Of a stretch of DNA of 34,806 bases, positions 1,181-32,226 are shown one piece after another. This stretch comes from Chrysochromulina tobinii (lineage: Eukaryota), in assembly GCA_001275005.1 (NCBI GenBank), contig JWZX01002066.1, forward strand, positions 1-34,806, given 5' to 3'. Within the stretch, counting starts at the first letter, position 1. Each line of letters starts with the position of its first letter. The notes beneath the pieces were generated by a model, which saw nothing but the letters and a program-made list of their open reading frames with translations, had not been told where the DNA came from and ran no database searches. A program made the position numbers and the translations under genes.

Positions 1181-1401
1181 CTGAAGACCTTTTTACCCCC
1201 TTGTCCCAAACCCTGACTGAGTGACTGATATGACTGAGCTGACTGCCTGAACCGGGACATCAGTCGAACCCCTTTTCCAAACATTTCCGTGTGAAATTGG
1301 GTGTCGAATTCTAAACATTGGCTGTGAAACTGGCGCGGGTCGGCCGCAAATCGGCCACAAAGGGAGCGGCGGGAGCGCTAAACGGTTTCTCACGCTTCTC
1401 T

Positions 1402-4400
1402 ATGTCGGCACGCAACGCGAACGCGTGTGCTAGCAGTAGCTATGCAGCCATCTCATCGGCCGCTGGTAGCAGCAGCAGCGGCGCTGGATCGAGGCCAGGG
1501 AATCAAGCTATTTACGATGAACTGCTTGCAGATTTCCTGAGAATGGGTTTTGAGTACAACTCCATCGAGCGGGCACTTCTCACAACCAACATTAGCGACA
1601 CGGCCTATGAGTGCTCTCGCGATGCTTGTCTCGCCATGCTTCTAGGTGGCTCGGGTGAACCTTTCATGTCGAATGCCGACGAAGGTCCTGTGCAGAGCCT
1701 CATGGACCTGACAGGCTGCGACGCACGCGAAGCAGCAAGCGCGCTCGAGCGCTGCAACGCGAATGTGTCCGAGGCAGCCGAGCTGCTGTTCAGAGATCTG
1801 GAGGATCTCGAGTCCGAGCTTGCGGCCCTGCGCATCGCGGATCTTGAGACGGTGCGAGTCTCAGAGCGCGCAGAGGCCGAAGCGCGTGATGCGGCGCTGG
1901 CGGAGGAAATCGAAGCGCGAGAGCGACAAGCACTCGGAAACGGTGCCTGCTGCACCGCGCTCGCGTCAGATGCGGCGCTCGCTGCCGAGCTTGCCACGGA
2001 GATGCATGCAGAGGGAGCTGTTGCGTCAGATGCGGCGCTCGCTGCCGAGCTTGCCACGGAGATGCATGCAGAGGGAGCTGTTGCGTCGGATGCGGCGCTC
2101 GCTGCCGAACTCGAAGCGCAGATGCATGCAGAGGCGCGGCAGCATCGTGCGCATGCGGAGGCCCGCATCGCTGACGACGAGGCGCTGGCGGAGGTGTCGT
2201 GGAGGCTGTCGATGGCAACGACGGCATCGGAGGCCGTGGAGGCTGCGCTGCAAGAGCACTCGTCAGCCCTCTTTGCTGCCGAGCTTGCGGAAGTGGACGC
2301 CGAGGGCGCGGTGCGAACGGAGCGCCGTCTCGAGCAGCAAGCGGAGCAAGTCGAGGCGTGGGAGCTGTCGGTGATAAGTGCCCGCGAGGAGCGTGCTCGG
2401 CAGCTCGGTGCAGTCTCCTCCGAGTTGTCGGCGCGCCACTTGGCGTATGCGCAAGCAAGGCAGCGGTCCATCATTAACGGTTACGCTGAACGCGTCGAAG
2501 TGGCGACGCTCAAGCTGCATGCATTCATGGGCGATGACAGCCAGAGGGTGCTCGACCTGAGTCGTTTGAGTGCACCTGGGCGGGCCCGCATCGAGGCGCT
2601 CGCTGCAGAGCTGTCCTCGGCGTCGTCAATGCGGCTCCAATGCACTGTCGATCACAGCGGTCCCGATCCCGTCTTGCGCATTCGCAAACGGACTCGACCA
2701 CCGGGCACAGCCTTGCCAGCTGCGACGCCAGCCAAACCGCCGGCCGCACCGCCAGCAGCCGACAGACTGGCAGCGTCCGGTGAGTCGCTCCATCTGCCGT
2801 ACAACAGCCATGTGAGCAGTGCCGGCTACACCAGCAACTTGCGTGTGGTGGGCGCCAGCAATGCGTCGCCCAAGTCTCTGGCTGCTGCTTCTGCTGAGAC
2901 AGAGCCGTCGTCACAGAGCTGCGCTCAGAGCACCGCGGCAGCGCCGCAGCCGCAACATCAACAGCCACGCCCACCAGCTCCGCCGTATGGCGACGTGCCG
3001 CTCGGCGTCTGGTGCGCGCTGCACGAGCTGCCGTTTCGTGTCAAGTACGAGGTCGAGGTACTTGTGGGGCTCAAGAAGATGGTGCGATGGGCGCTGCTCC
3101 CCGAGGCGTTTGTGCATGAGCTGCTCAAGTGCGTCGCCGAGGATGGCGAGGCCGTGTGCGTCTCGGTGCTGCGCAAGATGCAGGCAGAGCCCCTGCAGCC
3201 CGTGCTCGACTGGTTCCGGTCAGCGCGAGAGAGCTGCAGTACGCTACGATACGTGAACTTCTCTCCAGGGGTGCTTCATCAGCGCCCTTTGTGGAGCACG
3301 CTGCGCTCCGTCGAGGTACTACGGGCGGTCCATTGCTGTCCTAGTGGCAGGACAATTGCCCGCCCGGCCGAGTATCAGTCGTCCAACCGCGTGCTGCGGC
3401 TTGTCGGAGACCTCTATGGGACGGACCATTTGCTACGTGTCTCCTTCGTCAACGACGGTGTGCACACGCCCATCACGCTTCGCGGCTTGCACTGGGGGGG
3501 CGGTGAGGCGACGCCTGCGGCGGCGCGCGCCACAATCGCACGCTGCTGGCGCGAACGGCGGCTCGCGAGACGCGGCGGTTCGCAAAGTGTGGCGGCACGC
3601 AGCAGTGATCTCGACACGGTGCAGCGCCCACATTCCACGTTCCACGTACCACATTCCAAGTGGGAAGCTGTGAGTAGCGCGCTGCGTGACGGGCTGTGTG
3701 TCGGCGGCGAGCTTTTCCGATGGCTTGCGCCTTCCGCCTCCCAGATGAAGAAGGGAGGCATGTGGTTCGTGCGCGAGTCCGAGCTGAATGCCGCCCTGCT
3801 TCGTCGCTGCTTGGGCGACTTTAGCAAGCTCGCGACCCCGGCTCTCTATCTGGCGCGACTCGGCCAATGCCTTTCGTCGACGTATGTGTCGACGACGATA
3901 CAGCAGGAGGAGGCTTGGGACATGGAGGAGGTAGAGGACGTTGTGAGTGAGTCGGGCGAGATCTTCTCTGACGGCGCTGGATTCTGCTCATACAAGCTCC
4001 TTCAACTGCTCTTCGACTCACTGCACCGCCCGCCTCCCCAGAGCAGCGATCCGCCCCACCTTCAAACCCTCCTTGAGCGGCCGGGGAGTCGCCTACCATA
4101 CTCTGCGGTACAGGTGCGCTGCGGAGGCCGAAAGGGGGTGGTGGCCCTCCGGATGGGCACCGAGGGACGTGTCTTGTACACGCGGCCCTCGATGCACAAG
4201 TTTGATGCGAGCATTCGCGAGCTCGAGGTTTGTGAGTGGGCCACGTGGCACGCGGGCTACCTCAATCGGCCGCTCGTTGCGCTGCTCGAGCACCGCGGCG
4301 TGCCGTATGCTGTGCTGGAGCGCTACCAGAGCCAGTACCTCCGCGAGCTTAGTCAGTGCCTGACGAGCCAGCATCACGCCGAGCGGCTGCTTTCGAGCCT

Positions 4401-6198
4401 TGTTGGACTCATCGTCAAGGGCGGCGAAGCTGGTGTCGATGGCGTCGATGGCAGCGACGGTGACGCCTGCGGTGGACCACTTGGCACGGCACTGACGCTT
4501 TTGCGGCATGGTGTGCCCCTCGAGGAGCCGTTCGTGGCCGGCCTCTTGCGGTGCATCCGCGCTTCGCTAGTGCGTGGCGTCGTCGACAAGGCGCGCGTGC
4601 TCGTGCCGGAGGCGGCGACGCTGATAGGGGTGATGGACGAGGAGGGGGTGCTTGAGTACGGTGAGGTCTTTTTGCAAGTCCAGCCGCCGGATGCCCCCGA
4701 CGATGCGGGGCCACAGGTGATAGAGCAGAATGTCGCCGTCTACCGCAGCCCTGGCAAGCACCCAGGTGATGTACTTGTGCTTCGGGCAGTGCATCATCCA
4801 GCGCTCTGCCATCTGATCAACGTTGTCGTCTTCCCGCGCGTTGGGCCGCGCCCCCATCCTTCGGAGCTCAGTAGTGGCGACCTCGATGGCGACAAGTATT
4901 TAGTCATCTGGGCGCCGTCCATTGTCGACAGCATGCAACCAGCGCCTCCCGTGCCGCCGACTGCAGACCTGTGCCACCGACCGGCGCATAAGCAGCCCAC
5001 AGCAAAGCCAGCTTATAAGCAGCCCACAGCAAAGGCCTTTGCACGCCGCATGCCCCCACTGCCGCCACCGCCACCTTCCGAGCATGCGCTCCTCCAGCAA
5101 GTGGCACAGTGGGAGGTGGCCAAGGCATCGAAGCCACAGCCTGCCACCTTGGGTGACTTTTTGGCTCGAAGCGCACCACGACGGCGCGGCTTGAGCGAGG
5201 GCGAGATGGCCTCTCACGGCAAGATCCTCGAGGCAGCTCGCGAGGCACGAGCCGAGGAGCGCAGACAGCGCTTCCAGATCGAATTGATGCGTCGCATAGG
5301 CGTGGCGGAGGACGCGAGCGCCGTTGCGAGCGCCGTGCACCAGCAGCGGCTGGAGCGCGCGGCCATCCGCTGGTACATCTTCTTTGGCCAGCGCAATAAC
5401 GTCGGGACCATCTCCAACACATGGCTCGTGTACGCCGACCGCTGCGGAGTCGATCATCCGGAGACGCTTGAGCTCTGCCGGTTGGCGCAACTCGCCGTGC
5501 AGTTCGTCAAGACGGGCGAGCCGGTCGAGCTCGACCCGAGGCGCTTCCCCCCTCACGCTGCGCGCCCAGACTTCATGGCGCCCTCGCACACCGGCAGCGG
5601 TGAGGGTGAAGGACGGTATGTGTCTCAGCGCGCGCTCGGCAAGCTGCATCGAGCCGCTGTCGAGGCGACCACCGCAGAGGCCACACCCGCAGCTGCCGCC
5701 GATGCATTGGTCGCCTCTTCCCTCCTTGCCCAGCAGCTTCATGCCGCTGGCTTTGAGGTGCACCTGCCCGCGGCGAGGGCAGCACGCGACGCGTACAATG
5801 AAGAGGTTGCGTGGCACCTCGCAATGTACGGTGTAGCGACGGAGGCAGAGCTCCTTAGCGGGCGAGTGGTCGCATTCGAGCACGATTGGGTGGCGACCGA
5901 TGACTCCCAGGAGGCCGAAGAGGCACTACGCCGCTCCATCCACGCGCTGTGGGCCTGGGCGCGCCGGCGATTCCGCGTGGACGTGGAGGCGGCAGTGAGC
6001 GCTGCTCTACCAGCAGACGATGAGAGTGGTGGCGGCGGCACCGGCGAGAGCACCGCGACCCTGAGGCAACGCATGACACGACAAGTGGCATATGCGTGGT
6101 ATTCAGCGGGGAAATGGCTCGGGGAGGAGCCACCCATCAATGATCGCCTCGCGCTGCATTCGTTTGCGTGGGTCGCGTGGCCGTTGCCATATCTATAA
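1402..6198 (+). CDS. Cellular (RNAi-type) RNA-dependent RNA polymerase, ~1598 aa, with N-terminal UBA-like x2, MIU-like repeats and an R3H-like domain
   Basis: Uninterrupted ORF, first ATG at 1402. RdRP motifs in the expected order: SNRVLR, SASQMK, ARLGQCLSST, FSDGAG, QVRCGGRKG, RPSMHKF, LIGVMDEEGVLEYGEVF, RSPGKHPGD, VVVFP, SSGDLDGDKY (DLDGD at 4879-4893), then VGTISN and PDFM. Confidence 0.93.
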   Translation: MSARNANACASSSYAAISSAAGSSSSGAGSRPGNQAIYDELLADFLRMGFEYNSIERALLTTNISDTAYECSRDACLAMLLGGSGEPFMSNADEGPVQSLMDLTGCDAREAASALERCNANVSEAAELLFRDLEDLESELAALRIADLETVRVSERAEAEARDAALAEEIEARERQALGNGACCTALASDAALAAELATEMHAEGAVASDAALAAELATEMHAEGAVASDAALAAELEAQMHAEARQHRAHAEARIADDEALAEVSWRLSMATTASEAVEAALQEHSSALFAAELAEVDAEGAVRTERRLEQQAEQVEAWELSVISAREERARQLGAVSSELSARHLAYAQARQRSIINGYAERVEVATLKLHAFMGDDSQRVLDLSRLSAPGRARIEALAAELSSASSMRLQCTVDHSGPDPVLRIRKRTRPPGTALPAATPAKPPAAPPAADRLAASGESLHLPYNSHVSSAGYTSNLRVVGASNASPKSLAAASAETEPSSQSCAQSTAAAPQPQHQQPRPPAPPYGDVPLGVWCALHELPFRVKYEVEVLVGLKKMVRWALLPEAFVHELLKCVAEDGEAVCVSVLRKMQAEPLQPVLDWFRSARESCSTLRYVNFSPGVLHQRPLWSTLRSVEVLRAVHCCPSGRTIARPAEYQSSNRVLRLVGDLYGTDHLLRVSFVNDGVHTPITLRGLHWGGGEATPAAARATIARCWRERRLARRGGSQSVAARSSDLDTVQRPHSTFHVPHSKWEAVSSALRDGLCVGGELFRWLAPSASQMKKGGMWFVRESELNAALLRRCLGDFSKLATPALYLARLGQCLSSTYVSTTIQQEEAWDMEEVEDVVSESGEIFSDGAGFCSYKLLQLLFDSLHRPPPQSSDPPHLQTLLERPGSRLPYSAVQVRCGGRKGVVALRMGTEGRVLYTRPSMHKFDASIRELEVCEWATWHAGYLNRPLVALLEHRGVPYAVLERYQSQYLRELSQCLTSQHHAERLLSSLVGLIVKGGEAGVDGVDGSDGDACGGPLGTALTLLRHGVPLEEPFVAGLLRCIRASLVRGVVDKARVLVPEAATLIGVMDEEGVLEYGEVFLQVQPPDAPDDAGPQVIEQNVAVYRSPGKHPGDVLVLRAVHHPALCHLINVVVFPRVGPRPHPSELSSGDLDGDKYLVIWAPSIVDSMQPAPPVPPTADLCHRPAHKQPTAKPAYKQPTAKAFARRMPPLPPPPPSEHALLQQVAQWEVAKASKPQPATLGDFLARSAPRRRGLSEGEMASHGKILEAAREARAEERRQRFQIELMRRIGVAEDASAVASAVHQQRLERAAIRWYIFFGQRNNVGTISNTWLVYADRCGVDHPETLELCRLAQLAVQFVKTGEPVELDPRRFPPHAARPDFMAPSHTGSGEGEGRYVSQRALGKLHRAAVEATTAEATPAAAADALVASSLLAQQLHAAGFEVHLPAARAARDAYNEEVAWHLAMYGVATEAELLSGRVVAFEHDWVATDDSQEAEEALRRSIHALWAWARRRFRVDVEAAVSAALPADDESGGGGTGESTATLRQRMTRQVAYAWYSAGKWLGEEPPINDRLALHSFAWVAWPLPYL
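1963..2132 (+). repeat. 60-nt coding tandem repeat, ~3 copies (ASDAALAAELATEMHAEGAV)
   Basis: Sequence from 1981 and from 2041 is near-identical; the third copy diverges. Confidence 0.95.
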
Positions 6199-11243: not shown

Positions 11244-13881
11244 TCCGGCGCCGCTTTGGATGCCCTCGAGACCACGGCCACGGCCGGAGCGCAGGCGGGC
11301 TGGCTGCCGCCGCCGCCTCTGGCCGCCGTGCCGGTGCCCATCGACGCGGCGCTCGTGCGCAGCGTGCGCGCTTTCGACGGTCGCCCCGCGCGCGAGTTCA
11401 CAGGAGCGGCGGGTTGGGAGGCCGTCGAGGCCGGCCTCGAGGCCTACAAGAGTGCGAGCTTGAGCTTCGACGGGCTGGTGGGACTGCTTGCGCACGCGCT
11501 CTCGACGCCCGATTGCGTCACGAGTGTGCCCGACGTGTATGGCCAGCTGCATCTGAGTGTGCTCGAGCGCGCCGAGCGGCTGCACGGGGTGGCCCTGTCT
11601 GCCGAGGCACGGGCGGCACGGGAGCGTGCGAGGGAGGAGGCGAGGTCTGCACGTGCCCTCGCTGCCGAGGTGCGCACATGGCTCGCGCGTGTCACGCGCG
11701 CCGTCGAGCACGGCTTCGGCAACGCATCGAGTACGCTCATGGCGTACACGTTTGCGCGCGGCTACGGCGACGCCGGCACCAAGGGCGGCGGTGTCGGCGT
11801 CAGCCTCAAGGGCTTTGGCCGAGGCGTAAGCGCCGCGGCCGCCGAGGCCCGCGCCGTTGACGATGGACTGTGGACACGGGCGCTCGGATGCCTGCCACGC
11901 CACTCTGGAGGTGTGGCTACCCTCCATTCGATGGCGATGGTGGCCGTCGCTCGGCACGCGGACATCTCGGTCGAGATGGCGCCGCCCGCCGGAGCTGAAG
12001 AGGGAGCATCGCTCGAGGAGCTAGGGAGGGTGGCTGCCGCGGCGGCGCGTGAGCAGTGCGCGGGCGTGATCAGCGCGCTGCGCGGCTGGCGGCGGACGCA
12101 GCAGCCGTGGGCAGAGGCGCGCGTGCGTGAGCACATGGCAGAGCGCCATGTGCAGTCCGAGGTGCGCGCGGTCCTTGAGTCACTCCTCAAGCAGGTGGAT
12201 CGTGTCCTCAAGCCGGCCAATCGCGAAGGACGCATCGAGGAGCAGGTGGCGGCGGTCCTCTCCGCCCTCGTGGCCCGTGTGGTACGTATAGTCGAGCGCG
12301 ATGAGAAGTCATCCAAGTCGAAGAAGAGGAAGGCAGAGGAGGAGAGGAGGAAGGCGGAAGAGGCAGCGGCAGCGGAGGCGGCCAGAGCGGAAGCGGCGGA
12401 AGCAGCGGCGCGCTCCGAGAAGCTCCTCGCGTCACTGGCCAAGTACCTCGAGCACTGCGGCGGCTCGGCGGAGATGATCACTGGCTGGTACACGATGACT
12501 GAATTCCGCAAGGAGGGCGCCACTGCAGGCACCTATGACTCGTACTTCTTCAACAAGAAGGTGAGCGGGAGCGCAGCGCCGTCGTGAGCGCGGCGCCGTC
12601 ATGAGCGCGGCGCCCTCGCGCGCACAGCCCTCGCACGCACAGTCTTGAGCCTATTCATATTCACAGCCTCATTGAGCCCTCACTCGCCCCACCCTGCCCC
12701 CACCGGCGCAGGGCAAGCGCTTCCGCTCCCGCGCCGAGGTCGCGCGACATTTCAACCTGGAGGCCGCTCCCGCCAAGCGCGAGTCCAAGGGGGCGGAGGC
12801 CAAGGCGGCGGACAAGGCGGCGGCGGCCGAGGCGAAGCGGGCGGCCAAAGAGGAGGCGCGTGCCGCCAAGACGGCCAAGGGGCGCGCAGAACACACAGAG
12901 GCAGCCGCGCCGACGAGTCGATTTGGCCGCAAGCGGAGCGCGCCGTCATGGCACTCGGACCCGTACGGCGCGGGCGCCTTCGCGCGCGAGGACGAGCTGC
13001 GCGGGCGTGGCCGCGGCGTTGCCGTCGTCGATGCCAGCTTGGTCGACCACGGCGCTGACAGCAGTGCGACTGGAACCTCCACGGAGGTCCCGTTAGAGGA
13101 GCTCTGGAAGGCCCTGGAGGCCAGCGCCAGCGCCGCTTCACCTGTGGATCCTCCCGCATCGGCCACGGGCGGTCGAGGGTGCGGCACCGGCGGCGGGCGC
13201 GTCGGCGGGCGCGTCGGCGGGCGCGGTGGTGGGCGCGGCGGCGCCGCTGGTGGACGTGGCAGCGCGTCGCTCACCAAGCTGGCGGACGAGTGGCCGGTGG
13301 GGATGCGCGTCGAGGTGCAGCAGGAGAGCGACGTGCATTTTGGCGCGTGGTTTGAGGCGACAGTCTATGGACACAAGGCGCCCGATAAGCTGCGGGTCGA
13401 ATACGAGGAGCTCTGCGAGGATGATGCCGAAGCGGAAGACGTGGCCGACCTGCCCGGGCTGAAGCGCGACGAGATCGCCAAGCGAGTGCGCCCGCTGCCG
13501 CCGCAGCCCGCGGACGGCCGTTGGCTGGGCGCGCTCAGCGTGGGCGATTTGGTGCAGCTCTCATACATCGGCGGCTGGTGGGACGTGAAGGTGCTTGAAG
13601 TGCGCCCGCAGCCTCTATTTGACGAACCTCAATGGATCGTCAAGTCGGTCGACTTTGAGGCAGTCCACACGGTCGACGCGGCGGTGCTGCGCCCCCACGC
13701 ACAGTGGGATGGCGCGAGCAAGGCGTGGCGCACCCCTGCCGCCGGAGGTACGGGACCACCCAACGCCGACATGGGAGCATCTCCAGGTGCAACACCAATG
13801 GAGCCGCCGCCGCCGCAGCAGCAGCAGGGATTCCAGCAGCATCTGCTGCAGCAGCTGGTGCAGCATCCGCAGCAGCTTCAT

Positions 13882-13912
<31 letters not shown>

Positions 13913-14382
13913 AGCTCTTGCACCAACAGCACCAGCACCAGCACCAGCACCAGCACCAGCACCAGCACCAGCACCAGCACCAGCACCAGCAGGAGGAGGA
14001 GGAGGCGCGGGCGGAGGCGATGCAGAGAGAGGCAGCGACACGGGCAGCGGCGCAGCAGCAGCACCAGGCGATGCGCGGTGCCGATACGGAGGCGGCACGC
14101 GTGTTGCGTGCAGAGGAGAATAGGAAGCGCGAGGAAGAGAAGACCGTCAAGAAGGAGGAGGAGAAGAAGCGCAAGGCGGAGGAGAAGCAGGCTGAGAAGG
14201 ACATGAAGAAGCAGCGTAAGCTGGGGGGCGGAGGGGCGAGCAGCGCCTCCACTGCCGTCGCCACCGTCATCAGCGTCAGCGACGTCATCAGCGACGCCGC
14301 AGAGTGCCAGAGGACAGATGCAGGAGGGGCAGAGGGCGCAGCGGTGCAGATTGTGGCGGCCGCAATCGTCTCGGCACAGTGA
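9930..14382 (+). CDS. MBD-domain plus tandem Agenet/Tudor-like chromatin reader, 2 exons (9930-12560, 12712-14382), ~1433 aa
   Basis: Removing the phase-0 GT-AG intron 12561-12711 joins two ORFs in frame and restores an MBD: GWYTMTEFRKEGATAGTYDSYFFNKK|GKRFRSRAEVARHFNL. Agenet-like WPVGMRVEV...GAWFEATV...LRVEYEEL...VRPLPP and LSVGDLVQLSYIGGWWDVKV...LRPH. ELM2-like PRIGPKYQIEVVP at 10101-10139. Poly-Ala, poly-His and (HQ)n tracts. The true start is uncertain. Confidence 0.82.
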
Positions 14383-19230: not shown

Positions 19231-19809
19231 TTTGCTGAGTTCTTGTCCTAGCGAGTTAGAATTGCTAACGTTAAGGGCCATTCACTGTTGAGGTGTTTAA
19301 CACTAACAACTTAACAACAATAAGAATTGTTAACAACAACGCTTTAATGTTAAGGATTTTCCCTTCGTAGCTGGTAACCAACGATTTCGAAGGATAGTGC
19401 AACTCCTTATGAATAATTAAAGGAGGGTTAGTTTGAAAACCTGATGGGGAGAGAGGTGGGGACGGTATGAAAAACGTGAGCCTGTAGGGGCTGTTAAAAG
19501 GCTCTGAAATAGCTTGGGACTCGCGCAGAGGGCGTCTCGAGCCCTCTCCTCCCTCCCCTAACTGAGATCTCAAGGTATAGGGCACCTGATTTCTTGATTT
19601 CTTGATTATCCTGATTTCTTGATTTCAACACTTCTGATCATCCCTTGTCGACTTTCGAAGTCACCAAGTCAAATCGAACCGGCTTCTTTGTAACTGTAAA
19701 ACTGAAGAACTAATCTGAAGCGACGTATCTTGCTGAGTACAATTACTGACCGACGTTACAGACGGGGTACATCATGTACATCAGACGGACTACATCATGT
19801 ACACAACAC

Positions 19810-21705
19810 CTAAAAGATACCGTACAGATCCGGCGCCCATATGTATGGCTCTGAGCGCACCTCGCGCTCTGGCTCGGCAAACCTGGGAGGTCTAAACACA
19901 GGCGCGCGGTGCATGGCCGTGTCTACACTCATCACCTCATACTTATTCTGCAAACCATATCTGGTCCTGTACGGCACCTCGCGGTACCCTCCGCTTCGCT
20001 CATCACGTACGAGTGTCTCTGTGCTCGCCCATAGCCAGCGCAGGAGCATGAGCTCGTGGCGCCGGCCGTGCTCATCGACGCATGCAAATGCGAGACATAG
20101 CTCGCCAAACCAGTTGTCCCACCCGATGTCAGTAAACTTCGGGTCTATAGCCACAAATTCGGGGTGCGCGTTGGGTTGATGACCAAAGATGGACGCGTTG
20201 ATGGTGGGTGGGTTTGAACTTTCTCCAGTTTGCTGTACTTTGGGCTGCGAGGGCGGGAGCGAGGGGGATGGTTGGAGGGCTGGTGTGAGCGGTGTGGCAT
20301 GGCTCGCGCAGGCAGTGGTGGCGGCGCGGTGAGTTTGAGGAGACCTGTGCGAGGCGCACCGTTGGCCGCGGCGTGCGCCTGGACTCCTTGGGAGAAACCG
20401 CTGATGTGCTTGTTGAGCATCTTGAGGTGGTAGCCGTGGTTCATCATGAAGTCGAGCGCGATCTGCTCGCCGGCCCTCGGCTGCCGCCACCGACGCACAC
20501 GGGCCAAAGATGCCCGGCGCGACGGCCTTGACGATCGCACGCCCACCCGATCGCGAATGGAAGCGACAAGGGTCCGCCAAGTTGAGACAAGAGCGCGTCG
20601 TAGATGTCGACTGTGCCAGTCCAGTGGTCATTCACCTGGTCGCGTGTGAAGCACTGCAGCGACTCGAAGAACTTCAGATGTACCCTTGACTGGCTGATTG
20701 CGGTGCCTAATTCCATCGCACTGCACTGATGGTTTCTTGCCGCCTCTAGCAGAAGCTGCCTGAGCAGGGCGTGGCTCGGGCGGATGCTCGCCGGCCCTCG
20801 GCTGCCGCCACAGACGCACACGGGCCAAAGATGCCCGGCGCGACGGCCTTGACGATGGCCCACGGGACGACTTCGGCGGCCGCGCCAGGGCCGGGCTCCG
20901 CCCTCGCAATCTCCACGTGGCCCTCGTCATTGGCGGTGGCCACGACCAGGACGCTCTTGGCGGCGCAGGCGGCGGTGAACACGGCGATCCGTTCGGGCGT
21001 CGGGGGCTTCGTGGGGGTGAGGCCTGCGGCTCTGTTGGCGCGCTTGTTGGCGTGCGACCATGGCCACGTGCCGGCCTGCGCTGGCCTTGCTCAGGTGAGA
21101 CTGGGGGCAGGCGCAGCCCCCGGGTTCTCGGCGGCCCCCCGCAGAGCGCCAGAGCCCACCGTAGCTCCCGATAGCCGAGACGAGTTGGTCTGCGCCATGC
21201 GACTGTACTGGAGCATGTACTCTGATAATCGTGATGAGAATGTACGCATCACAAATCATCTCGAAGGTCGAAGCGTGCATCCTGGATGACAGCATGACGC
21301 ACGCGTGCAGCTAGTTGTCCAACATGGCCTTGTACTCGTCGCTCATGAGCTTGCGCGCCTCTGCGCGCTCGCTGCAGCCCATGGCGTTCGTCCAGTGGGA
21401 CGCCAGAGGCGCCTTGGTTGTTTTCCCGATGCCCTCGCGGTCGGTGATGAAGCGCCGTGTGAGCATGTCGCTGATACCAATGGCTGATACGCTGCGCGCT
21501 GCGCCGCGCGCTCGGCCTCCGTGGCCGTGACCTCGCGACGCGACACCTTGGCGACCGATAGGTCGGGGTCTATGGCCGCGCCGTGCAGCACCTTGGCGAA
21601 GATGCGGCAGCCCTCTGCCTCCACATGGTCCCGCGCCGCCACCGTGACGGCGGCGTGCATCCGCACCGTAGGGTGGTCACATTGGCCGGGCGACCAGATC
21701 CCCAC
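19810..21705 (-). pseudogene. Degenerate transposase-like remnant; C-terminus resembles the BAH-like tail of Plavaka/CMC-type transposases
   Basis: Protein-like fragments in several frames with stops and frameshifts. The last segment reads FVAID...WFGELCLAFAC...HELMLLRWL...YEVMSVDTAMHRAPVF...YIW. It is next to a repeat array and lower-GC DNA. Family call is by pattern recall only. Confidence 0.45.
20464..20856. repeat. 72-bp direct repeat pair (20464-20535 and 20785-20856), one mismatch
   Basis: tgctcgccggccctcggctgccgccac(c/a)gacgcacacgggccaaagatgcccggcgcgacggccttgacgat, copies separated by 249 bp. Confidence 0.95.
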
Positions 21706-22075
21706 CTCAGGGGGTCAAATGGGCGCCGTTTTGGGCGTTCTGTTACGTAATTACGGATTTACGGATTTACCCCCCTCCCTGAGCGCCCTCGACACGCTCC
21801 GACCCGGTCACACACGCGTAACTCCGAATCAAGTCCACCGCGGCCGCCGGGCGTCACGTCGACTTACGGTCTAGGCCTCTATTGTGCAATGATAAAACGT
21901 AAATTAGCCGACACGCCCGCCTCCAATTGCCGACGCGTCTGCCTGCCGGGCTCCGGGCTCCGCACGCCTCCGCAGCGCACCTCCTGCCGCGCTGGCGCGC
22001 TGCCCCCACAAGCTTGCCCACACAAGCTGCCTGCAATCTCTATCGAATCTCTCTCAAGCTCGGACCTCAGAGCGC

Positions 22076-23081
22076 TCACAGGCCCTGTGAGTAGTACGCG
22101 AGCGCCGTGTTGCCGCACGGGTTGACGCCGGGCACGGTGCCGTACACCATGAGCCCACCCCAAAAGCCCGCGAGCGCCTCGCCGCCTGATGAGGGGCGCC
22201 ATCAAGCACAATCAGCGAAACACTCAGTGCAATCAAGTGGGCATCGCGAGCATGCGAGAGGGCTGTGGGAAAGAGGTCGGTGCCAACCTGATGAATGTCG
22301 CACTCAAGCCCAATCAGAGGCAATCAGGAGTCATTAGGGTGAGGTACCCACCACGGTTGCGGCAGATGGCCGCATCCTTGAGCAATTGGGTGTACAGGAG
22401 CTTCGAGCGCGGGTACGCCTTCTCGTCGCCGGCGGCCGGGATGGTGACGAGCCGTTGGGTGCCGGTGCTCTCGTTGAGCGCGAAGAAGAAGCTGTTGAGC
22501 GCCTGCCGTCCTGCCTCCCACGTCGTGTACACCTCCGCCACGTCCTTGGCTGAAGGGCCCGCCACGTTGCCCGTGGTCGCGCCGCGCCGCGCCTGCCGTG
22601 AGAGCTGGAACATGCTCTGCTGGAACTTGTCGAGGGCGGACTGCATGTCCTCGCCGCCCAGGTCGGGCGGGAACGCGAGCGCGAGGATCTTCATCGGCGT
22701 CACGAACTCGCGCTCGAGCCGCGAGACCGATGCCGCGCTGCCAATGTCGGATGACGCCGTGAGCTCGCCGATGCGGTCCCACCGGCCCGGATTGTTGAGC
22801 CAATCCTTGAGCTCAAAAAGGTAAAAGTCTGCGTCCAGCTGCAGCTGCGGCAGATACTGCAGGTACGCCTGCTTCGCCTTGGGCGGGATCTCGTCGAGCA
22901 GCCCGATGTCCGCCTTCTTGAGCGAATTGGGATCGACCATCAATTGCTCGAGCGCGAACGCGGGCGCCGCGGCAAAGGAAGCTGCTGCCATAGCATTGCC
23001 AAGCAGGGCGCGCCGCGTCTGCACGCCGGCTGTCGCCGGCTGCAGCGACGCGCTTGCGCAGAGAACCACCGCGAGCAGCAT
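22076..23081 (-). CDS. Nucleus-encoded thylakoid lumen protein (signal peptide, short transit peptide, twin-arginine signal), 2 exons (23081-22352, 22185-22076), 279 aa
   Basis: N-terminus MLLAVVLCASASLQ...TRRALLGNAMAAASFAAAPAFA has RR, a hydrophobic stretch and an AxA site. Phase-1 GT-AG intron 22351-22186 gives ...ICRNRG|GEALAGFWGGLMVYGTVPGVNPCGNTALAYYSQGL*. Confidence 0.82.
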
Positions 23082-23750
23082 GACTTTGGTAAGAGTCGTG
23101 GGAACACGTTAACACGATGACGAAACCAATTCCGAATTCTTCCCCGCACTTCTCCTTTACTGGCCGCAGGCCACTTACCCCCCCCTTACAGGCCGCCCAC
23201 CGCTCCGTTTCGAATTTACATGAATAATTTCGCAATTCTTGTCCCCTCTGCCGATCGATGCAAATCGATGCCTACATTGTACTCTCATGTAGGCAACACA
23301 CACCACTTACCCACCGCTGCTTTGATGCCAACATGCCATCACCACCCTCGCACCTGTGGTCCTGCGCGTGGAGCCGTGGACCTCCACCAAAACCGCCGCG
23401 ACACTTTCATCACGCTCGATCCGCTCTACCCGAGGGTCTACCCGCTGCCCACCGCACCCCGTCCTCGCTCCTCCTCTGGAGGGCGCTGCCGCCCGCGCTG
23501 CCCTCCAGAGCACCGGCAGGCTGTAGACGCTCGACGGCCTCCGTGCCGTGCTCCGTCTTAAGCTCCGTCGGCAACCCGACCCCCGCGCGCCAGCACGGTC
23601 CAGCGACGGTGCAGCTCGTGCACCTCCACCTGCGACCTGGCCTCGTTTCGAGTGGCTGCCGGGTGGCCTCGTCTCAAGCGATCTCCGTCAGCCGCGGATG
23701 CCGGATAGCGCGATAGGGCCGATAGGCGCGCCGCGGATTGCGCACAGATC

Positions 23751-24155: not shown

Positions 24156-26662
24156 TTGGCCTTCAAGACGGTCCCCTCGAGCGCCGTCTTGAGCTGCTCG
24201 CACGCCGCCCCTGCGGCCGTGCTGGGCGCCGTACCGGGCGCACCGCCCGCCACGGCGGCCGCCGCACTCACGGCGGCCGCGGCGGTGGCGAGCGATGCGC
24301 TGGCGTCCTCCGCGGCTGAGAGAGCTGCCTGCGCCTCCGACGCACAGCGTTCGAATGCCTCCCGCGCCTCCGCTGGCTCCGTCGCCTCCGCGCCAAGCTT
24401 CAGGTGGCACGCCGCGAGGTTGTTGCACAGGAGCGCCAGCACCGAGCCTGCCGCGGCGGCCGTGTACGCCGCCGCCGCGGCCGCGCTCGCTGCAGCAGCC
24501 GGCTTGGCCGCCTTTTTGGCCGCCTTGCTCGCCACCGAAGCTGCCGTCTGCGCCACGTCAAGGCGCTTCTCCGCTTCCCGCCGGAGCGCATCGAAGAGGA
24601 AGCTCGCGCCCGGCACGGCGCCGCTCGCGAATAGCTTGCCTGCGCGCTCACGCTCGTCTGCCATCGCCGCCGTGCGCGCTGTCGCCTCCGCCGCCGCTGT
24701 CGCCACCGCCGCGTCGACAGCGCGCGCGTCGGCGACGGCCTCCACCTTTTGGTCCGCCTCCGCCTTCGCCTTTGTCGCCGCCACCGCTGCCGCCTCGGCC
24801 TCCGCCTGCGCCTTCGTCTGCGCCGCCGCCATTGCCTTTGCCTCCGCCCTGGCTTTCGCCTGCGCTTCCGCCTCCGCCTTCGCCATTGCCTTGGCCTCCG
24901 CCTTCGCCTTGGCCTCCGCCTCCGCCTTGGCTTTCGCCTCCGCCTTCTCCTTTGCCTCCGCCTTGGCTGCATCGACCGCGGGCGGCGCCTTGCGTGGTGC
25001 GGGCGGGGGCTTCCCTACTTTGGCAGCTGCCTTGGCAGCTTTGAGCGCCGCCGCCCTTGCCTCGGCCTCCTCGGCGGCCTTCAATGCGCGCTCAGCCGCT
25101 ACGGCCGCCGCGACCGCCGCCTCCTCCGCGGCTGCCGCCTCTGCCAGGGCCGCCTCTGCCGCCTCTGCCGCCTCCTGGTCCTCCTCTTCCACAGCCTCTT
25201 CTTCCACAGCCTCCTCCTCCTCCTCCGGATCCCCACAGCCCTCTTCCACAGCCTCCTCTTCCACAGCCTCCTCCTCCTCCTCCGGATCCCCACAGTCGTT
25301 ACCTGCCTTCGCGCTAGCTGACGCAGAGTACCCCACCCGAGCCACTACCGCCGCCGCCGCCGCCGCCGGCGCTGTCGTCGCCGCTGTCGTCGCCGCCGCC
25401 GCTGTCGTCGTCGCCGCCGCCACCCCGGACGGCACTACCGCCTTGTCCTTCTTCTTCTTCTTCTTCTTCTTCTTCTTCTTTGCATCTGCAGGTGCCTCTC
25501 CGGAAGCTACGTCGCCGTCCACGTCGTCGTCATCGTCTTCCTGTGCGGCCGCCACCTGCCTAGCCGCCACCAGCGCAGCCGCCGCGGCCTGCGCTGGTGC
25601 AGCTGCCGCCTGCGCTGACGCTGCCTGCGCAGGCGATGGCGCTGGCGCCGCCGCCTTCGCAGCCGCCGCCTCTTCCTTCGCTGCCGCCGCCTTCACCTTC
25701 TCCGCCTCCTCGCACGCGGCCTCAATCTCAAGCAGCTTCGCACCGACTTCGGGCATCTCGGGCATCAGCTCCTTCGCGGTACGCATCGAGTCGAGAGCAC
25801 CGGAGAGCTCGTTGGCCTGATGAGCGAGGCAATCAGAGCCCATCAGTTGCTATCAAGGGAGGCCATCGAGAGGTCGAGAGCACCGGAGAGCTCGCTGGCA
25901 TGCAGCCGCATTGTGGGGGAAAGCGTGTGGTAATCAGTGGTGATGAGTGGTGATGAGTGACCTGCAGCCGCAGGCATCCGAGCCTGTAGTGCGCCTTGCC
26001 CCATTCGGGAGCGAGCTCTGCCGCCTCCTCCGCGTCCGCCTTAGCCAGATCCGAGTAGCCCAGCTGTGTGTAGCACACCGAGCGGTTGCCGAGGAGCTTA
26101 GCGCGCTCCAGGTCCGCAATCTGCGTGATCTCGAGTGCCTCCGAGTAGAACGCTCGCGCGGCGGTCAGGTCCTGCTTCTGCATCGCCAGGTTGCCTCGCT
26201 CCTGCAGAGGGAGGGTGAAAGGGTGAGCGAGAGGGTGTGCGAGAGGGTGTCTGGGGTCAACTGATAATGAGACTCGTCAGGGTCATGAGAGAAACACCTC
26301 CGCGCGCAGCTCAATCAATCGCACTCAGTCCGGCACTCAGTACGGCTACCTTGAGTGAGAGGAACATCTCCGCGCGTAGCTTGTCCTCCTCCTGATAGAT
26401 CTTCGCCTGCTCAACCATCGCCTTGCGTGCGACGTGCACCGTGTTGTCGACGATCTCACCCTGCTTCTGCTTCTTCTCTTGCGCTTCCTGCAGGTCTTTA
26501 TTGCGCTGCGCGACGGCAGCCGCCGCCTCGGCCGCGGCCGCCTTGTGTTTCTCCACCTCGGCCAGCTGCGCCGCGAGCTTCTCCTTGGACGCCTGCAGCT
26601 CAGCCAGCATCGACTTCGTCTTCGCGTTCGCGGCGTCGAGCGCCGCAACGTCGAGGGCGGAG

Positions 26663-27897: not shown

Positions 27898-30800
27898 TCA
27901 CTTCGTCGCCTTGCTCCGTCCCCAGCCGAACGCACTCATCACTTTCACGGAAGTGACTACGGATTTCGCGGCGTCTCTTACGACGGGCACCGGCCGCACT
28001 TCCTCTGGCACGAGGACCTTCGGCGGCTCATTCGGCGGCGGTGCGGCATAGATCGAGGGTGACGAATGTTCCGATGAAGGTTCTAGCCTTGGTTGCGGCA
28101 TCGATCTGAGATAATTCGCCTCCGCCTCCCTCGCCTTCGCCTCCGCCTCCCTCGCCTTCGCCTCCGCCGCCTTCACTCTCACCAACACAGCCTCCCTCGC
28201 CTCTTCCTGGTTTGAAGCAAACGCCACCACCCGTGGGGCGCGGGGTGGCGGGGGCACCTGTGGAAGGGGCGCGAAGTGCTCGCCTGAACGCTCGGCACGG
28301 CGCTCCGCACGAGCCGCCACAGGCGCCAGAGACACTGAAAGGAGACGAGGGTCTGTCGGCGCCACGGCCGCATGAAGACGCGAGAGTCGGGTGGCCGCTT
28401 GCTCGAAGAGCATGCGCCGGGCTTCCAAGCGAGTCGAAGCAAGGTCACCGAGCACATCCTCAAACTGGTCCACCATCGGCTCATTCGCTTGCATCGGATC
28501 GTCGTCTGGTCTGCCTTCGTCTGCCTGGCCGTTAGCCACTGCCTTGTCCAAGGAGGCCAGGGCGGCGGCGAGGGAAGCCAACGGGCCTCCGCCCTCCTGC
28601 TCACCTTCTTCGATGCCATGCTCGAAGCCTCCCTCGTAGCCGCCTTCGTAACCACCCTCGTAGCCGTGCTTGCCGTACTCGCTCCCCTCCCCTGCATGGT
28701 ACTCGCCCCCCTCCCCTGCATGGTACTTGTCGGCTCCGTGCTCGCGTGGCAGCTCGTGAAACTTCGCGTTCTGCCGGTGGCGCCGTGGCGCGCGTATTTC
28801 GCTGGGGGAGTCTGAAGGCGGGTGGATCATTCTTGCTGACATTTGCCGCACTGCTGACCATGGGCTGGTTTGCAGCAGCAGCTGCATGAGTACTTCCTTC
28901 ATTGCGGCGTGCGCCTGTACCTCCATGTCGGGTGTGCGCCCAGGCCTTTGCGCGTGCGTCGATTGGATACGACCCAAGAGATACTCTGCCGTTGCGCCCC
29001 ACGCCGCCGTCTGCGCCTCGTTGCTCGGGTCGGGGTGTACCTCGAGCAGCTCCAGTCCCGCGCGCTGTCCGAGCAGCCGACGCGCCGTCTCGCGCAGCAC
29101 CTCGTCCGCGTACGGCGCGAACCCCACGTCGACGCGCACGAGCTCGAGCTGCGTGAGCGGCTTGCCGTAGATGTTGAGGGTCGTGGACGGATTGCACACG
29201 TCGCACAGCACATTGACATGGTTTCCAATGAGCTTACGCGCAGCCGCCTCGCGATACTGTAAGGGGTTACCCGCCGCCGTCAAGTCCACAGCTTCACGTG
29301 TAGCTGCCGTCGTCGATCCCTTGCCCAGCGCCTTGCGCAGCATCGCCCAGTGCGGCGCCGTCGCAGCGATGGTTGCGGTCAGGGCCGACTGCCCGACCTC
29401 GGCCAGCACAGCGAGCGTTGCGTTGCCGGCAATGAAGCTCATGTCAGGCTCGCGCCCGGGCTTTTGCTCCGGCGTCGACTGGATTCGGCCGATGAGGTAC
29501 GTGGCGGCCTTGTGCCACGTGGTGCACTGCTCATGGTTGTGCAGATGCAATTTCGCCTCAAGGGCACCTGAACCTGCGCGCTTGCCGAGCAGCCGTCGGA
29601 CTGTCTCCTGCATGAGCTCGTCCACGTACGGCGACAGGCGAGGGTCGACACGCCCAAGCTCGAGCTGCGTGAGCGGCTTGCCGTAGATGTTGAGTGTCGT
29701 GGACGGGTTGCACACGTCGGCCAGCACTTTGTGCCGGTTGCGGAGCAGCCTCTCGGCGGCCTCCTGCCTCGCCATGTGGGGAAAAGGCTTCGCGCGGCCG
29801 TCGGCCACCGAATCAAACCCGGCGCCTTGTTCAATCAGCAATTCGAGACCTGCCCAGACTCGCGACGCGTCGAGATGGGCGCGTGGCCCGGCCACCTCCC
29901 GAAGCACCGCCTTCATCGCCGCCGCGGCGGCAGGAGGCATATCAGGTGTGCGCCCGGGCCTCTCATCGTCCATCGCCTGCAGCCGCCCGCACAGGTAATA
30001 TGCCGTCGCACCCCACGCCGCCGTCTGCGCCTCGTTGCTCGGATCGGGGTGTACCTCGAGCAGCTCCAGTCCCGCGCGCCGTCCGAGCAGCCGACGCGCC
30101 GTCTCGCGCAGCACCTCGTCCGCGTACGGCGCGCACCCCACGTCGACGCGCACGAGCTCGAGCTGCGTGAGCGGCTTGCCTTCAATGTTGGTGATCGGGG
30201 ACGGGTTACACAGATCGCGTAGCACGCGATCATGGTTTCCAATGAGCTTTCGCGCAGCCGCCTCGCGCGCCGCTTGCGAATGAGCCGCTGCAGCGCCCTC
30301 TGCCGGTGCGCCTGAGCTCTCGCGCTCCTCGAGCGCATCTTGAAGCATCAGCCAATGAGGCATCGAGAGCTTGTGCGCCAACGTCAGGCTGCTGCACGCG
30401 ATCTCTTCGAGCACCGCGAGCATGGAGGCCGCAGCCTCGGGGGACATGTCTGGAGAGCGGCCAGGCTTCTGCTCAGGCTTCGACTGGATGCGAGTCTGGA
30501 GGTAGCGCCACACCGTCGCCCACGCGTTCGCCTGCGTCGGATTGTTCATCTCGCAGCGCACCTCGTGCGTCTCGGAACCTCGCCGCGGGCCGAGCAGCCG
30601 GCGCGCGCACTCGAGAAGCGCCTGGTCGGCGTAGATGCGGCTGCCTTCGGGCACGCGCTCGAGCACTTGCTGCGTGCGCGGCTGCGGGTGCGACAGGTCA
30701 TAGAGGAGGGCCTCGTGGTTACCGACGAGCTTGCGCGCCGCCTCCATTCGAGCATCATACGCGTGGGAGGCCGCTACGCCGCACGCCTCAATCTCGAAGC

Positions 30801-31077
30801 CGAAAGACTCGTGCATCTGGGTAGCTTCTTCGAGCATGACTATGAGCGAATGCCAAAACGGCTCGTGTTCGGGGATGCTCGCCTGGGGCGCGCCTCTGGT
30901 GCCGTCACTCCTCAGGCCGTCGCCGTCGACGATGAGGCCTAGCTCCATGGCCGCCCTCAGCTTTCGTTGTGCTTTGGACGTTGGGCCTCCGCTCTCGTCG
31001 TTCATATCCAGCATGGAGCTGATGGCCGTCTGCCATGCTGGTGGAGCCCCAGTGTCGACCATGAAGTCCATGGCCAT
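27898..31077 (-). CDS. Hypothetical 1059-aa protein with four tandem ~120-aa helical repeats
   Basis: Single ORF. Repeat pattern R.EAA.(K/R)L..N...L.D...P...Y.D..L....RRLLG.R.G...W...YL..R(I/L)Q....PGR.PDM...A...VL at ~30750-30395, 30270-29890, 29773-29390 and 29257-28875. Confidence 0.85.
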   Translation of the reverse strand: MAMDFMVDTGAPPAWQTAISSMLDMNDESGGPTSKAQRKLRAAMELGLIVDGDGLRSDGTRGAPQASIPEHEPFWHSLIVMLEEATQMHESFGFEIEACGVAASHAYDARMEAARKLVGNHEALLYDLSHPQPRTQQVLERVPEGSRIYADQALLECARRLLGPRRGSETHEVRCEMNNPTQANAWATVWRYLQTRIQSKPEQKPGRSPDMSPEAAASMLAVLEEIACSSLTLAHKLSMPHWLMLQDALEERESSGAPAEGAAAAHSQAAREAAARKLIGNHDRVLRDLCNPSPITNIEGKPLTQLELVRVDVGCAPYADEVLRETARRLLGRRAGLELLEVHPDPSNEAQTAAWGATAYYLCGRLQAMDDERPGRTPDMPPAAAAAMKAVLREVAGPRAHLDASRVWAGLELLIEQGAGFDSVADGRAKPFPHMARQEAAERLLRNRHKVLADVCNPSTTLNIYGKPLTQLELGRVDPRLSPYVDELMQETVRRLLGKRAGSGALEAKLHLHNHEQCTTWHKAATYLIGRIQSTPEQKPGREPDMSFIAGNATLAVLAEVGQSALTATIAATAPHWAMLRKALGKGSTTAATREAVDLTAAGNPLQYREAAARKLIGNHVNVLCDVCNPSTTLNIYGKPLTQLELVRVDVGFAPYADEVLRETARRLLGQRAGLELLEVHPDPSNEAQTAAWGATAEYLLGRIQSTHAQRPGRTPDMEVQAHAAMKEVLMQLLLQTSPWSAVRQMSARMIHPPSDSPSEIRAPRRHRQNAKFHELPREHGADKYHAGEGGEYHAGEGSEYGKHGYEGGYEGGYEGGFEHGIEEGEQEGGGPLASLAAALASLDKAVANGQADEGRPDDDPMQANEPMVDQFEDVLGDLASTRLEARRMLFEQAATRLSRLHAAVAPTDPRLLSVSLAPVAARAERRAERSGEHFAPLPQVPPPPRAPRVVAFASNQEEAREAVLVRVKAAEAKAREAEAKAREAEANYLRSMPQPRLEPSSEHSSPSIYAAPPPNEPPKVLVPEEVRPVPVVRDAAKSVVTSVKVMSAFGWGRSKATK

Positions 31078-31239
31078 TGCAAGCGGAATGAAGACCGCCC
31101 GCGAACGTTCGGAGATTTTGAGGAATTCATGTAACGGTATCGGAATGAATAGAAGAATGCGGAATATTAATGAAATTTTTTATTTACAGCCTCTGATGAG
31201 CCAAGATGAGCTCGATGCAGCGCGCGACTCTCTACCACC

Positions 31240-31986
31240 CTAGGCTTCCGCGGCCTCCTCCACCTGCCTGGACGGTTGCGGTTCCGCCGGTGCTGCTGGG
31301 GTCGGTGGCGGCTGCGGCGCCACGAGTGGGTTCTCGCCGGTCGGCGGCGACTGGGACTCTGCCGTTAGGGTTGGCGGCGGCTGCGCGAGTTCCGCCAGAG
31401 GGGTCGGCGGCGGCGCGGGAGCCTTCGAGCCGCCCAACTCTTCCTGCTTCACTCTTGTGAGCAGCCGAAACAACAGCGGCTTGGGCAAGAAGGCGGCCGC
31501 CAACTTGCCCTTTTCGTCGGTAGCCTCGAGCAGGCCTCCGCCGCTGAGCAGCGCGATGATGGTGTCTATGAGCCGCTCCTGCCGCTGCGGATCTTTCGTG
31601 TCCGCAAGCGCTTTGCACGCGGTGTGCATCGGCGTCGCGCCATCCTCCTTCAACTCTTCCGCGGTGCCCTTTCGCACTCCGGGCTTGGCGCCCTCTCGCA
31701 GCAGCAGCGTGACGACAGCTGCATGTGCGCAGCCCGCGGCAATGTGCAGCGGTGAATTGCCCTCCGTGTCGGGCCGTGCCAGAGCCAGAGCGCGCGCCTC
31801 GGGCTCCGGCGGCAGCGCAAGCTCCACGCACTCCGAGCTGCCGCCCATGCACGAGCGGTGGAGCGCCGTCCAGCCAAATCGATTCTTCTGTTTGTAATCA
31901 GCGCCGTCTTCGTAGCACCGCCGCACCTCGGCCACATCGCCGGCCTCGCACGCCGCCCAAAGCTTCATTTGGCTCGGCTTGAGCAT
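31240..31986 (-). CDS. Ankyrin-repeat protein, 248 aa, with a Pro-rich tail
   Basis: LWAACEAGDVAEVR, GWTALHRSC, GNSPLHIAA...VVTLLLREGA, GATPMHTAC; ATG at 31986. Confidence 0.9.
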   Translation of the reverse strand: MLKPSQMKLWAACEAGDVAEVRRCYEDGADYKQKNRFGWTALHRSCMGGSSECVELALPPEPEARALALARPDTEGNSPLHIAAGCAHAAVVTLLLREGAKPGVRKGTAEELKEDGATPMHTACKALADTKDPQRQERLIDTIIALLSGGGLLEATDEKGKLAAAFLPKPLLFRLLTRVKQEELGGSKAPAPPPTPLAELAQPPPTLTAESQSPPTGENPLVAPQPPPTPAAPAEPQPSRQVEEAAEA

Positions 31987-32058
31987 GGCGACGAGCGGGC
32001 AAAAAAACACCCGCACGGATGGTGTCGGCGGAATGCCGTTGATAAGTCGCAAGAGTAT

Positions 32059-32080
32059 GTCAAGTCAAGTCAAGTCAAGT
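32059..32080. repeat. (TCAAG)n microsatellite in a divergent intergenic region
   Basis: gtcaagtcaagtcaagtcaagt. Confidence 0.85.
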
Positions 32081-32226
32081 TCTGTGGGAATGCGGCTTCG
32101 TCAACCACCGCCCATGGGCTTGTACTAGTAAGAACCCCCTGGCGACGCCTGGCAGTTTCGTTAATTCATGCGGACCCCTCGATCGCAAAAACAAAGCGAC
32201 TCACAAACGGAGAGTTTACCGGCGTC

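Follow-up and report, generated by a model that had tools for sequence, protein, structure and literature searches.

Background

How RNA-dependent RNA polymerases (RdRPs) choose their templates is an open question. Among the described systems, the plant enzymes RDR1, RDR2 and RDR6 (PF05183; RDR2, PDB 7roz and 7eu0) resemble the protein analysed here in having a DLDGD core with a helical domain ahead of it. They differ from it in the N-terminal region, where the arm of our protein combines a pair of UBA-like domains with MIU-like helices and a predicted R3H fold, and where RRM, PH_RDR2, RDR6_2nd and related families are unmatched. The helicase-fused RdRPs of oomycetes and Dictyostelium also carry a lineage-specific N-terminal module on the RdRP core, but the fused module is a DEAD-box helicase and not a set of ubiquitin-binding domains (PMC4791657). 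A likeness in logic only is offered by Cue2 (PMC9841427, PMC13232801), in which N-terminal ubiquitin-binding bundles stand before an RNA-acting enzyme; Cue2, however, has CUE and UBA domains and cuts RNA, whereas the present protein is a polymerase with putative binders, and no homology between the two was found.

The Emiliania small-RNA study reports one RDR with DLDGD, and the part of the text available to us does not mention N-terminal domains (PMC4839659). In the literature searched, which included few subscription journals and excluded supplements, we found no description of a UBA/RdRP architecture or of a haptophyte RdRP arm; UBA and RdRP come up together in a paper on GW182 (PMC5594548) and in one on a choanoflagellate Tudor-DCD protein (PMC7641849). 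An arm of putative ubiquitin readers on an RNAi RdRP is apparently undescribed so far.

Results

An RNAi-type RdRP with a long N-terminal arm

The window, that is, the whole stretch of DNA analysed, comprises 34,806 nt of contig JWZX01002066.1 of Chrysochromulina tobinii and is GC-rich. The frame of the RdRP gene extends from stop to stop over 1315-6198, with the first ATG at 1402, and its product is 1598 aa in length. The features of the gene are as follows:

1402-6198, + strand: RdRP ORF, uninterrupted, 1598 codons, RNAi-type RdRP with an N-terminal arm
1513-1647, + strand: UBA-A (aa 38-82), a UBA-like helical bundle with an MGF loop and a long helix2-helix3 loop
1684-1794, + strand: UBA-B (aa 95-131), a UBA_4-type domain without MGF
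1888-1926, + strand: MIU-like helix 1 (aa 163-175), pattern D-x-x-L-A-x-x-I, helical in the model
1963-2134, + strand: 60-nt triplication carrying MIU-like helices 2-4 at 20-aa spacing
2491-2694, + strand: predicted R3H-fold domain (aa 364-431) with an R-x-x-x-E signature and a basic last strand
2695-2982, + strand: linker rich in Pro, Ala and Ser, in which the alignment shows a short conserved motif, YN-x-H
2983-3237, + strand: helical domain ahead of the core, common to other RdRPs by clade profile
3349-5655, + strand: RdRP catalytic domain (Pfam PF05183), DLDGD at 4879-4893

The presence of an RdRP core, claimed in an initial annotation made from the sequence, was borne out. The match to PF05183 covers aa 650-1418 with 387 bits (E 2e-115; Pfam cut-off 23.8), the catalytic DLDGD is found at aa 1160, and the remaining core motifs are also kept. 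A profile of the clade described below matched the solved structures of RDR2 (E 8e-85) and QDE-1 (E 1e-20), and in the helical domain ahead of the core 21 of the 139 other RdRPs were matched by the clade profile with a domain E<1, the best at 5e-4. As far as its sequence can tell, the protein is an RNAi-type RdRP by every test made.

Short RNA contigs lie along the RdRP frame, the arm included (for example 1407-1697, 1659-2057, 2622-2824 and 2934-3249), and parts of the arm were covered by such pieces in all four RNA runs; therefore, the gene is probably transcribed. No splice joint was seen in the pieces along the frame, and none of the pieces listed spans both the arm and the core. On the 5' side of the gene, RNA contigs match 817-1013 and 1297-1328 and then diverge, at higher depth, as dispersed repeats would.

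Two UBA-like domains

Two UBA-like segments had been proposed ahead of the core. The claim holds for UBA-B as a 47-aa fragment, which matches Pfam UBA_4 with 28.6 bits (cut-off 21.8); the score was 23.8 bits within aa 1-516 and 21.4 bits, just under the cut-off, in the whole protein. It holds less well for UBA-A, whose profile remained below the cut-off (E 0.03 to both Pfam UBA and UBA_7) although MGF is present after helix 1, at aa 48-50 (1543-1551). The MGF loop is a UBA hallmark (PMC13232801); in UBA-B the corresponding loop is TGC. UBA-A was modelled as three helices with a pLDDT of about 38-57, and for aa 33-180 the Atlas gave no more than a hint, to a UBA cluster (0.83). Leave-one-out profiles located UBA-A correctly in all four tests, but with only 1-11.5 bits, and in one of the four the score fell below that of the best unrelated RdRP; for UBA-B these profiles were weak in three of the four. 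When both UBAs were used to search PDB sequences, designed repeat proteins came out on top and were judged to be noise, followed by 1wj7 and 2dal (E 0.13 and 0.19, respectively), which we take to be UBA domains.

MIU-like helices and a 60-nt triplication

An MIU consists of a helix with an acidic start, a central Ala and flanking hydrophobic residues. Outside the UBAs the arm has four helices of the form D-x-x-L-A-x-x-[LI], at aa 163, 190, 210 and 230. The initial annotation had counted four to five; the fifth candidate, near aa 258, does not fit the pattern. It had also traced three of the helices to a recent triplication of 60 nt, and this was confirmed, the repeat at 1963-2134 having 2.9 copies with 93% matches; in nine close variants counted, the 60-nt unit is present in 2 or 3 copies. 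A loose MIU-like pattern, which was picked after the helices had been inspected and three copies of which stem from the one triplication, occurred six times in the window protein, including two occurrences inside UBA-A, against 0.17 in shuffled sequences. One of the four loose matches outside the UBAs also fits a strict pattern, and all four are helical in the model, which shows most of aa 108-375 as long helices. The MIU-like helices of the window protein are rich in alanine. Complex prediction with ubiquitin and aa 150-245 gave a score of 0.00 in two runs, in which the fold of the partner was uncertain and no controls were included; we count it neither for nor against binding.

A predicted, degenerate R3H fold

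The R3H domain is defined by Arg-x-x-x-His in helix 2 (PMC3505976, PMC7708074). The segment that had been read as R3H-like with E replacing H does have R-x-x-x-E (2581-2595), and its model has the R3H fold; the canonical RxxxH is lost, and Pfam gave no match at E<=10. The fold is alpha-beta-alpha-beta-beta, as in the R3H domains of SMUBP-2/IGHMBP2, PARN, SPAG7 and chain sh of the FAP-80S complex (presumably Fap1), and appears in the single-sequence model (pLDDT about 60-72) as well as in an AlphaFold model built with an 8-row alignment (pLDDT 85.8). Foldseek with this model was led by five R3H-bearing chains, all at E>0.001. In a VIA-align comparison against 48,161 chains the top four were all R3H proteins, SPAG7 (Z 7.8), FAP-80S chain sh (7.8), PARN (7.7) and SMUBP-2 (7.2), values which lie below the clear-match level of Z 8 and can reflect a common arrangement; since four different R3H proteins rank first, the R3H signal is consistent all the same. 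SMUBP-2 was superposed on the model with an rmsd of 1.9 over 59 aligned residues, and the Smr, Alba, S8 and SepF folds, which stay as weaker candidates, ranked under the R3H chains (Z 4.8-6.8). Foldseek with the 516-aa single-sequence model of the N-terminal region gave nothing at E<=0.001, and an Atlas search with the R3H-like part gave no usable match; in the 516-aa model the pLDDT is below 50 from aa 431, in the linker, to the end at aa 516.

RxxxH is missing in all five lineages in which the segment could be compared, with R-x-x-x-E in the window protein and no R/H pair in the four relatives, and because the signature is lost across the clade, binding of nucleic acid by the domain is uncertain. 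Between the window domain and three counterparts the identity is 18-23%, and the window domain scored -2 bits against their profile. In leave-one-out tests the segments of the relatives P0003, P0004 and P0029 were strongly linked to one another (20-59 bits), and the profiles did not link those of P0001 or P0247. The arm is predicted, on the strength of the models, to contain a degenerate R3H fold.

The arm is shared by a clade of relatives

When the core was used in a word search, three proteins came up, an allele and two homologs with 49% and 47% identity. A scan of 1.84 billion representatives gave 3,749 matches, and the best 150 of the 3,749 were used; within these 150 the top matches, the allele excluded, have 46-58% identity and the rest about 30-41%. 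Only three identical copies of the RdRP gene were found in a metagenome scan. In a FastTree tree of the 84 sequences (of 139) with a long enough core, the six close ones form a clade (support 1.0, stem 0.88), in which P0027 is the sister of the window protein (support 0.84). P0027 falls in the same 90% cluster as a EukProt protein of the haptophyte Prymnesium polylepis; the clade with the arm is likely to be a haptophyte clade.

Four lineages, that of the window protein included, have the whole N-terminus (P0001, P0003, P0004 and P0247), and all four have UBA-A, a second UBA-like domain, at least one MIU-like helix and an R3H-like segment. The loop of UBA-A is MGF in the window protein and FGF, MKF and MGM in the three relatives in which its equivalents were aligned. 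In P0004 the two UBA types occur in swapped order. UBA_4 was matched in P0004 with 34.4 bits and in P0003 with 17.4 bits, below the cut-off; in P0247 the UBA left just a UBA_7 trace (E 0.17). In four of five lineages the strict MIU-like pattern is matched once or more outside the UBAs, the helices of P0003 fitting only the looser pattern there. P0029, a fifth and partial lineage, starts among the helices; it includes the helix and the R3H-like segment, and seven further fragments of the clade are without the arm region. Judged by its recurrence in these sequences, the UBA/MIU/R3H layout is a real character of the clade and not a quirk of one gene.

Three short ORFs (P0174, P0175 and P0176; 83-96% identical to the arm) contain parts of it only and then run into unrelated sequence; they may be truncated alleles, fragments of paralogs or cases of reuse of the arm. 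The N-terminal fragments P0032/P0247 and the C-terminal fragment P0026 are on contigs of the same two sizes and meet at a point of the core where P0029 also ends, which suggests an intron in the relatives at a site that is intronless in the window gene.

Other RdRPs

Of the 141 lower-ranked RdRPs, the 106 with at least 190 residues before the core were scanned and the 35 shorter ones were left out. No UBA family was matched at E<=0.01 in any of the 106, in a scan that a UBA as weak as that of P0247 would escape, and the strict MIU-like pattern had two matches in their 41,117 N-terminal residues. Because the layout recurs in distant relatives and was unseen in the 106 other RdRPs, the domain calls made above are stronger than they would be for a single protein.

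RRM or PH-like domains occur in many of the 106, and the RdRPs scanned also showed helicase, kinase, nucleotidyltransferase and NYN domains. It was thus too narrow to suppose an RRM at most on characterised RdRPs, given these domains and the DEAD-box fusions already cited (PMC4791657). In the window protein and its clade there was no match to RRM, PH_RDR2, RDR6_2nd or related Pfam families at E<=1, and two of the three tree neighbours of the clade (P0033 and P0039) carry RRM. The simplest reading is that the UBA/MIU/R3H arm replaced an ancestral RRM/PH arm.

Among the other RdRPs, P0041 is the closest neighbour of the clade in the tree (support 0.87). It bears a RanBP2-type zinc finger at the N-terminus (E 8e-4, under the cut-off) and, at the C-terminus, a NYN nuclease of the Zc3h12a-like type (E 3e-10); the zinc finger could be another case, independent of the arm, of a module for binding ubiquitin or RNA on an RdRP. 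In P0104, P0127 and P0141 a single chain unites the RdRP with helicase domains and with a nucleotidyltransferase that resembles poly(A) polymerases.

Possible role of the arm

We propose that the two UBA-like domains and the several MIU-like helices would bind polyubiquitin by the avidity of weak sites, and that the arm would dock the RdRP on ubiquitin-marked RNA-protein complexes, of which stalled ribosomes would be the foremost candidate. The predicted R3H-fold domain may contact the RNA and help to hold it, as R3H does in IGHMBP2 (PMC3505976), and the docked enzyme would use the trapped mRNA as a template for dsRNA, which would feed siRNA production. It is common for weak ubiquitin-binding domains to stand in tandem arrays of mixed type and to gain avidity in this way (PMC7226360), and the swapped UBA order in P0004 and the variable number of helices are as expected of a multivalent array. 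By analogy, the best precedent for an array of this kind in front of an RNA-acting enzyme is offered by Cue2, which reads ubiquitin on collided ribosomes through its N-terminal CUE domains (PMC9841427). In plants, ribosome stalling channels transposon RNA to RDR6, and the available part of that report leaves the recruiting step undescribed (PMC12535099). These three lines, avidity arrays, Cue2 and plant stalling with RDR6, speak for docking on mRNPs that carry ubiquitin marks.

Ubiquitin binding by the arm is probable, the two classes of putative ubiquitin-binding module co-occurring in all four lineages with a whole N-terminus. For recruitment of the enzyme to ubiquitylated mRNPs we estimate a probability of roughly 0.45. 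The choice of ribosomes as the marked complex is tentative and rather doubtful, as nothing in the sequence points to ribosomes over chromatin or granules, and the full chain of events, in which a haptophyte RdRP would directly read ubiquitin on stalled ribosomes and turn the trapped mRNA into dsRNA, must be put forward as speculative.

The UBA-like bundles and helices might instead be adapters or a coiled-coil stalk, binding partners or dimerising the enzyme and not reading ubiquitin. Such a role would suit the missing MGF of UBA-B and the long helices modelled over most of aa 108-375, and there are precedents: GW182, itself an RNA-silencing protein, has a UBA-like domain for which the available text defines no ubiquitin role (PMC5594548), and yeast HBS1 retains the fold and is judged unlikely to bind ubiquitin (PMC13232801). 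We regard it as unlikely, since UBA-A keeps MGF or a close variant in four lineages, clear acidic-L-A-x-x-[LV] helices are found at the same place in P0247/P0032 and P0004, and a stalk alone hardly explains why two types of module recur together. More improbable is an arm that is a chance open frame or part of a mis-joined gene, outside the expressed polymerase. The lack of a bridge between arm and core by one RNA contig among the pieces listed and the existence of truncated arm copies as separate short ORFs (P0174-P0176) would agree with it, but the frame runs for 1598 codons without a stop, single ORFs at 47-49% core identity show the same layout, and unspliced RNA pieces cover parts of the arm in all four runs, which also contain spliced RNA from a neighbouring gene; taken together, these make it hardly credible.

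If the arm does bind ubiquitin, the bound mark might also be on chromatin (histones or silencing factors), with the enzyme acting co-transcriptionally in the formation of heterochromatin. Both fission yeast and plants have nuclear RdRP complexes. MIUs recruit RNF168 to chromatin (PMC11602139). By its fold, however, the domain on the RNA side matches R3H proteins, among them PARN, SMUBP-2 and the ribosome-complex chain, and a Pfam scan of the protein found no chromatin-reader domain; we give this possibility a small chance. Ubiquitin binding might, in turn, regulate the enzyme (autoinhibition when ubiquitylated, turnover or storage in granules) and have no part in template choice. Hrr1 and ZNFX-1 bind RdRPs. 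ZNFX1, an RNA helicase and E3 that is tied to RNAi in C. elegans and related to Hrr1 of S. pombe (bioRxiv 10.1101/2025.10.14.682297), makes an RNA helicase E3 of this type a candidate writer for ubiquitin-rich granules, and ubiquitin conjugated to a protein is known to be bound within the same molecule (PMC7226360). Regulation of this kind seems improbable to us, as the arm has no RRM/PH match, so that some other part would have to select the templates.

Docking on ubiquitin-marked mRNPs, the reading we prefer, would bear on template choice, for which the fusion supplies a candidate signal kept across a divergent clade, and with putative readers this signal becomes testable with small recombinant domains. 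If the ribosome model is true, ribosome quality control would be hard-wired to siRNA production within one polypeptide, showing how an RdRP can recognise aberrant RNA. Should the link to ribosomes not hold, an RdRP under the control of ubiquitin would still bring a new input into RNA silencing. The clade further indicates a subfamily of RdRPs in a group of algae that is of major ecological importance and whose RNAi machinery has received little study.

Neighbouring loci in the window

Nothing in the neighbouring frames suggests a mobile element around the RdRP gene. The RNA runs gave no cover at 19300-21811, which was not taken as evidence. The gene at 21859-23089 (- strand) is expressed, and its 166-nt intron (22185-22350) was spliced in all four RNA runs; its product has 57 mostly unnamed homologs and no Pfam domain and, read from its N-terminus, looks like a plastid-targeted protein. 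A frame of 1093 codons at 27898-31179 (- strand) contains a threefold internal repeat, with units of at least about 300 nt at a spacing of about 500 nt, and no Pfam family above the cut-off. The frames at 12676-14382 (+ strand), 31756-33249 (+ strand), 31243-32064 (- strand) and 25836-26276 (- strand) gave matches to the Agenet, amino-acid permease, ankyrin and TPR families.
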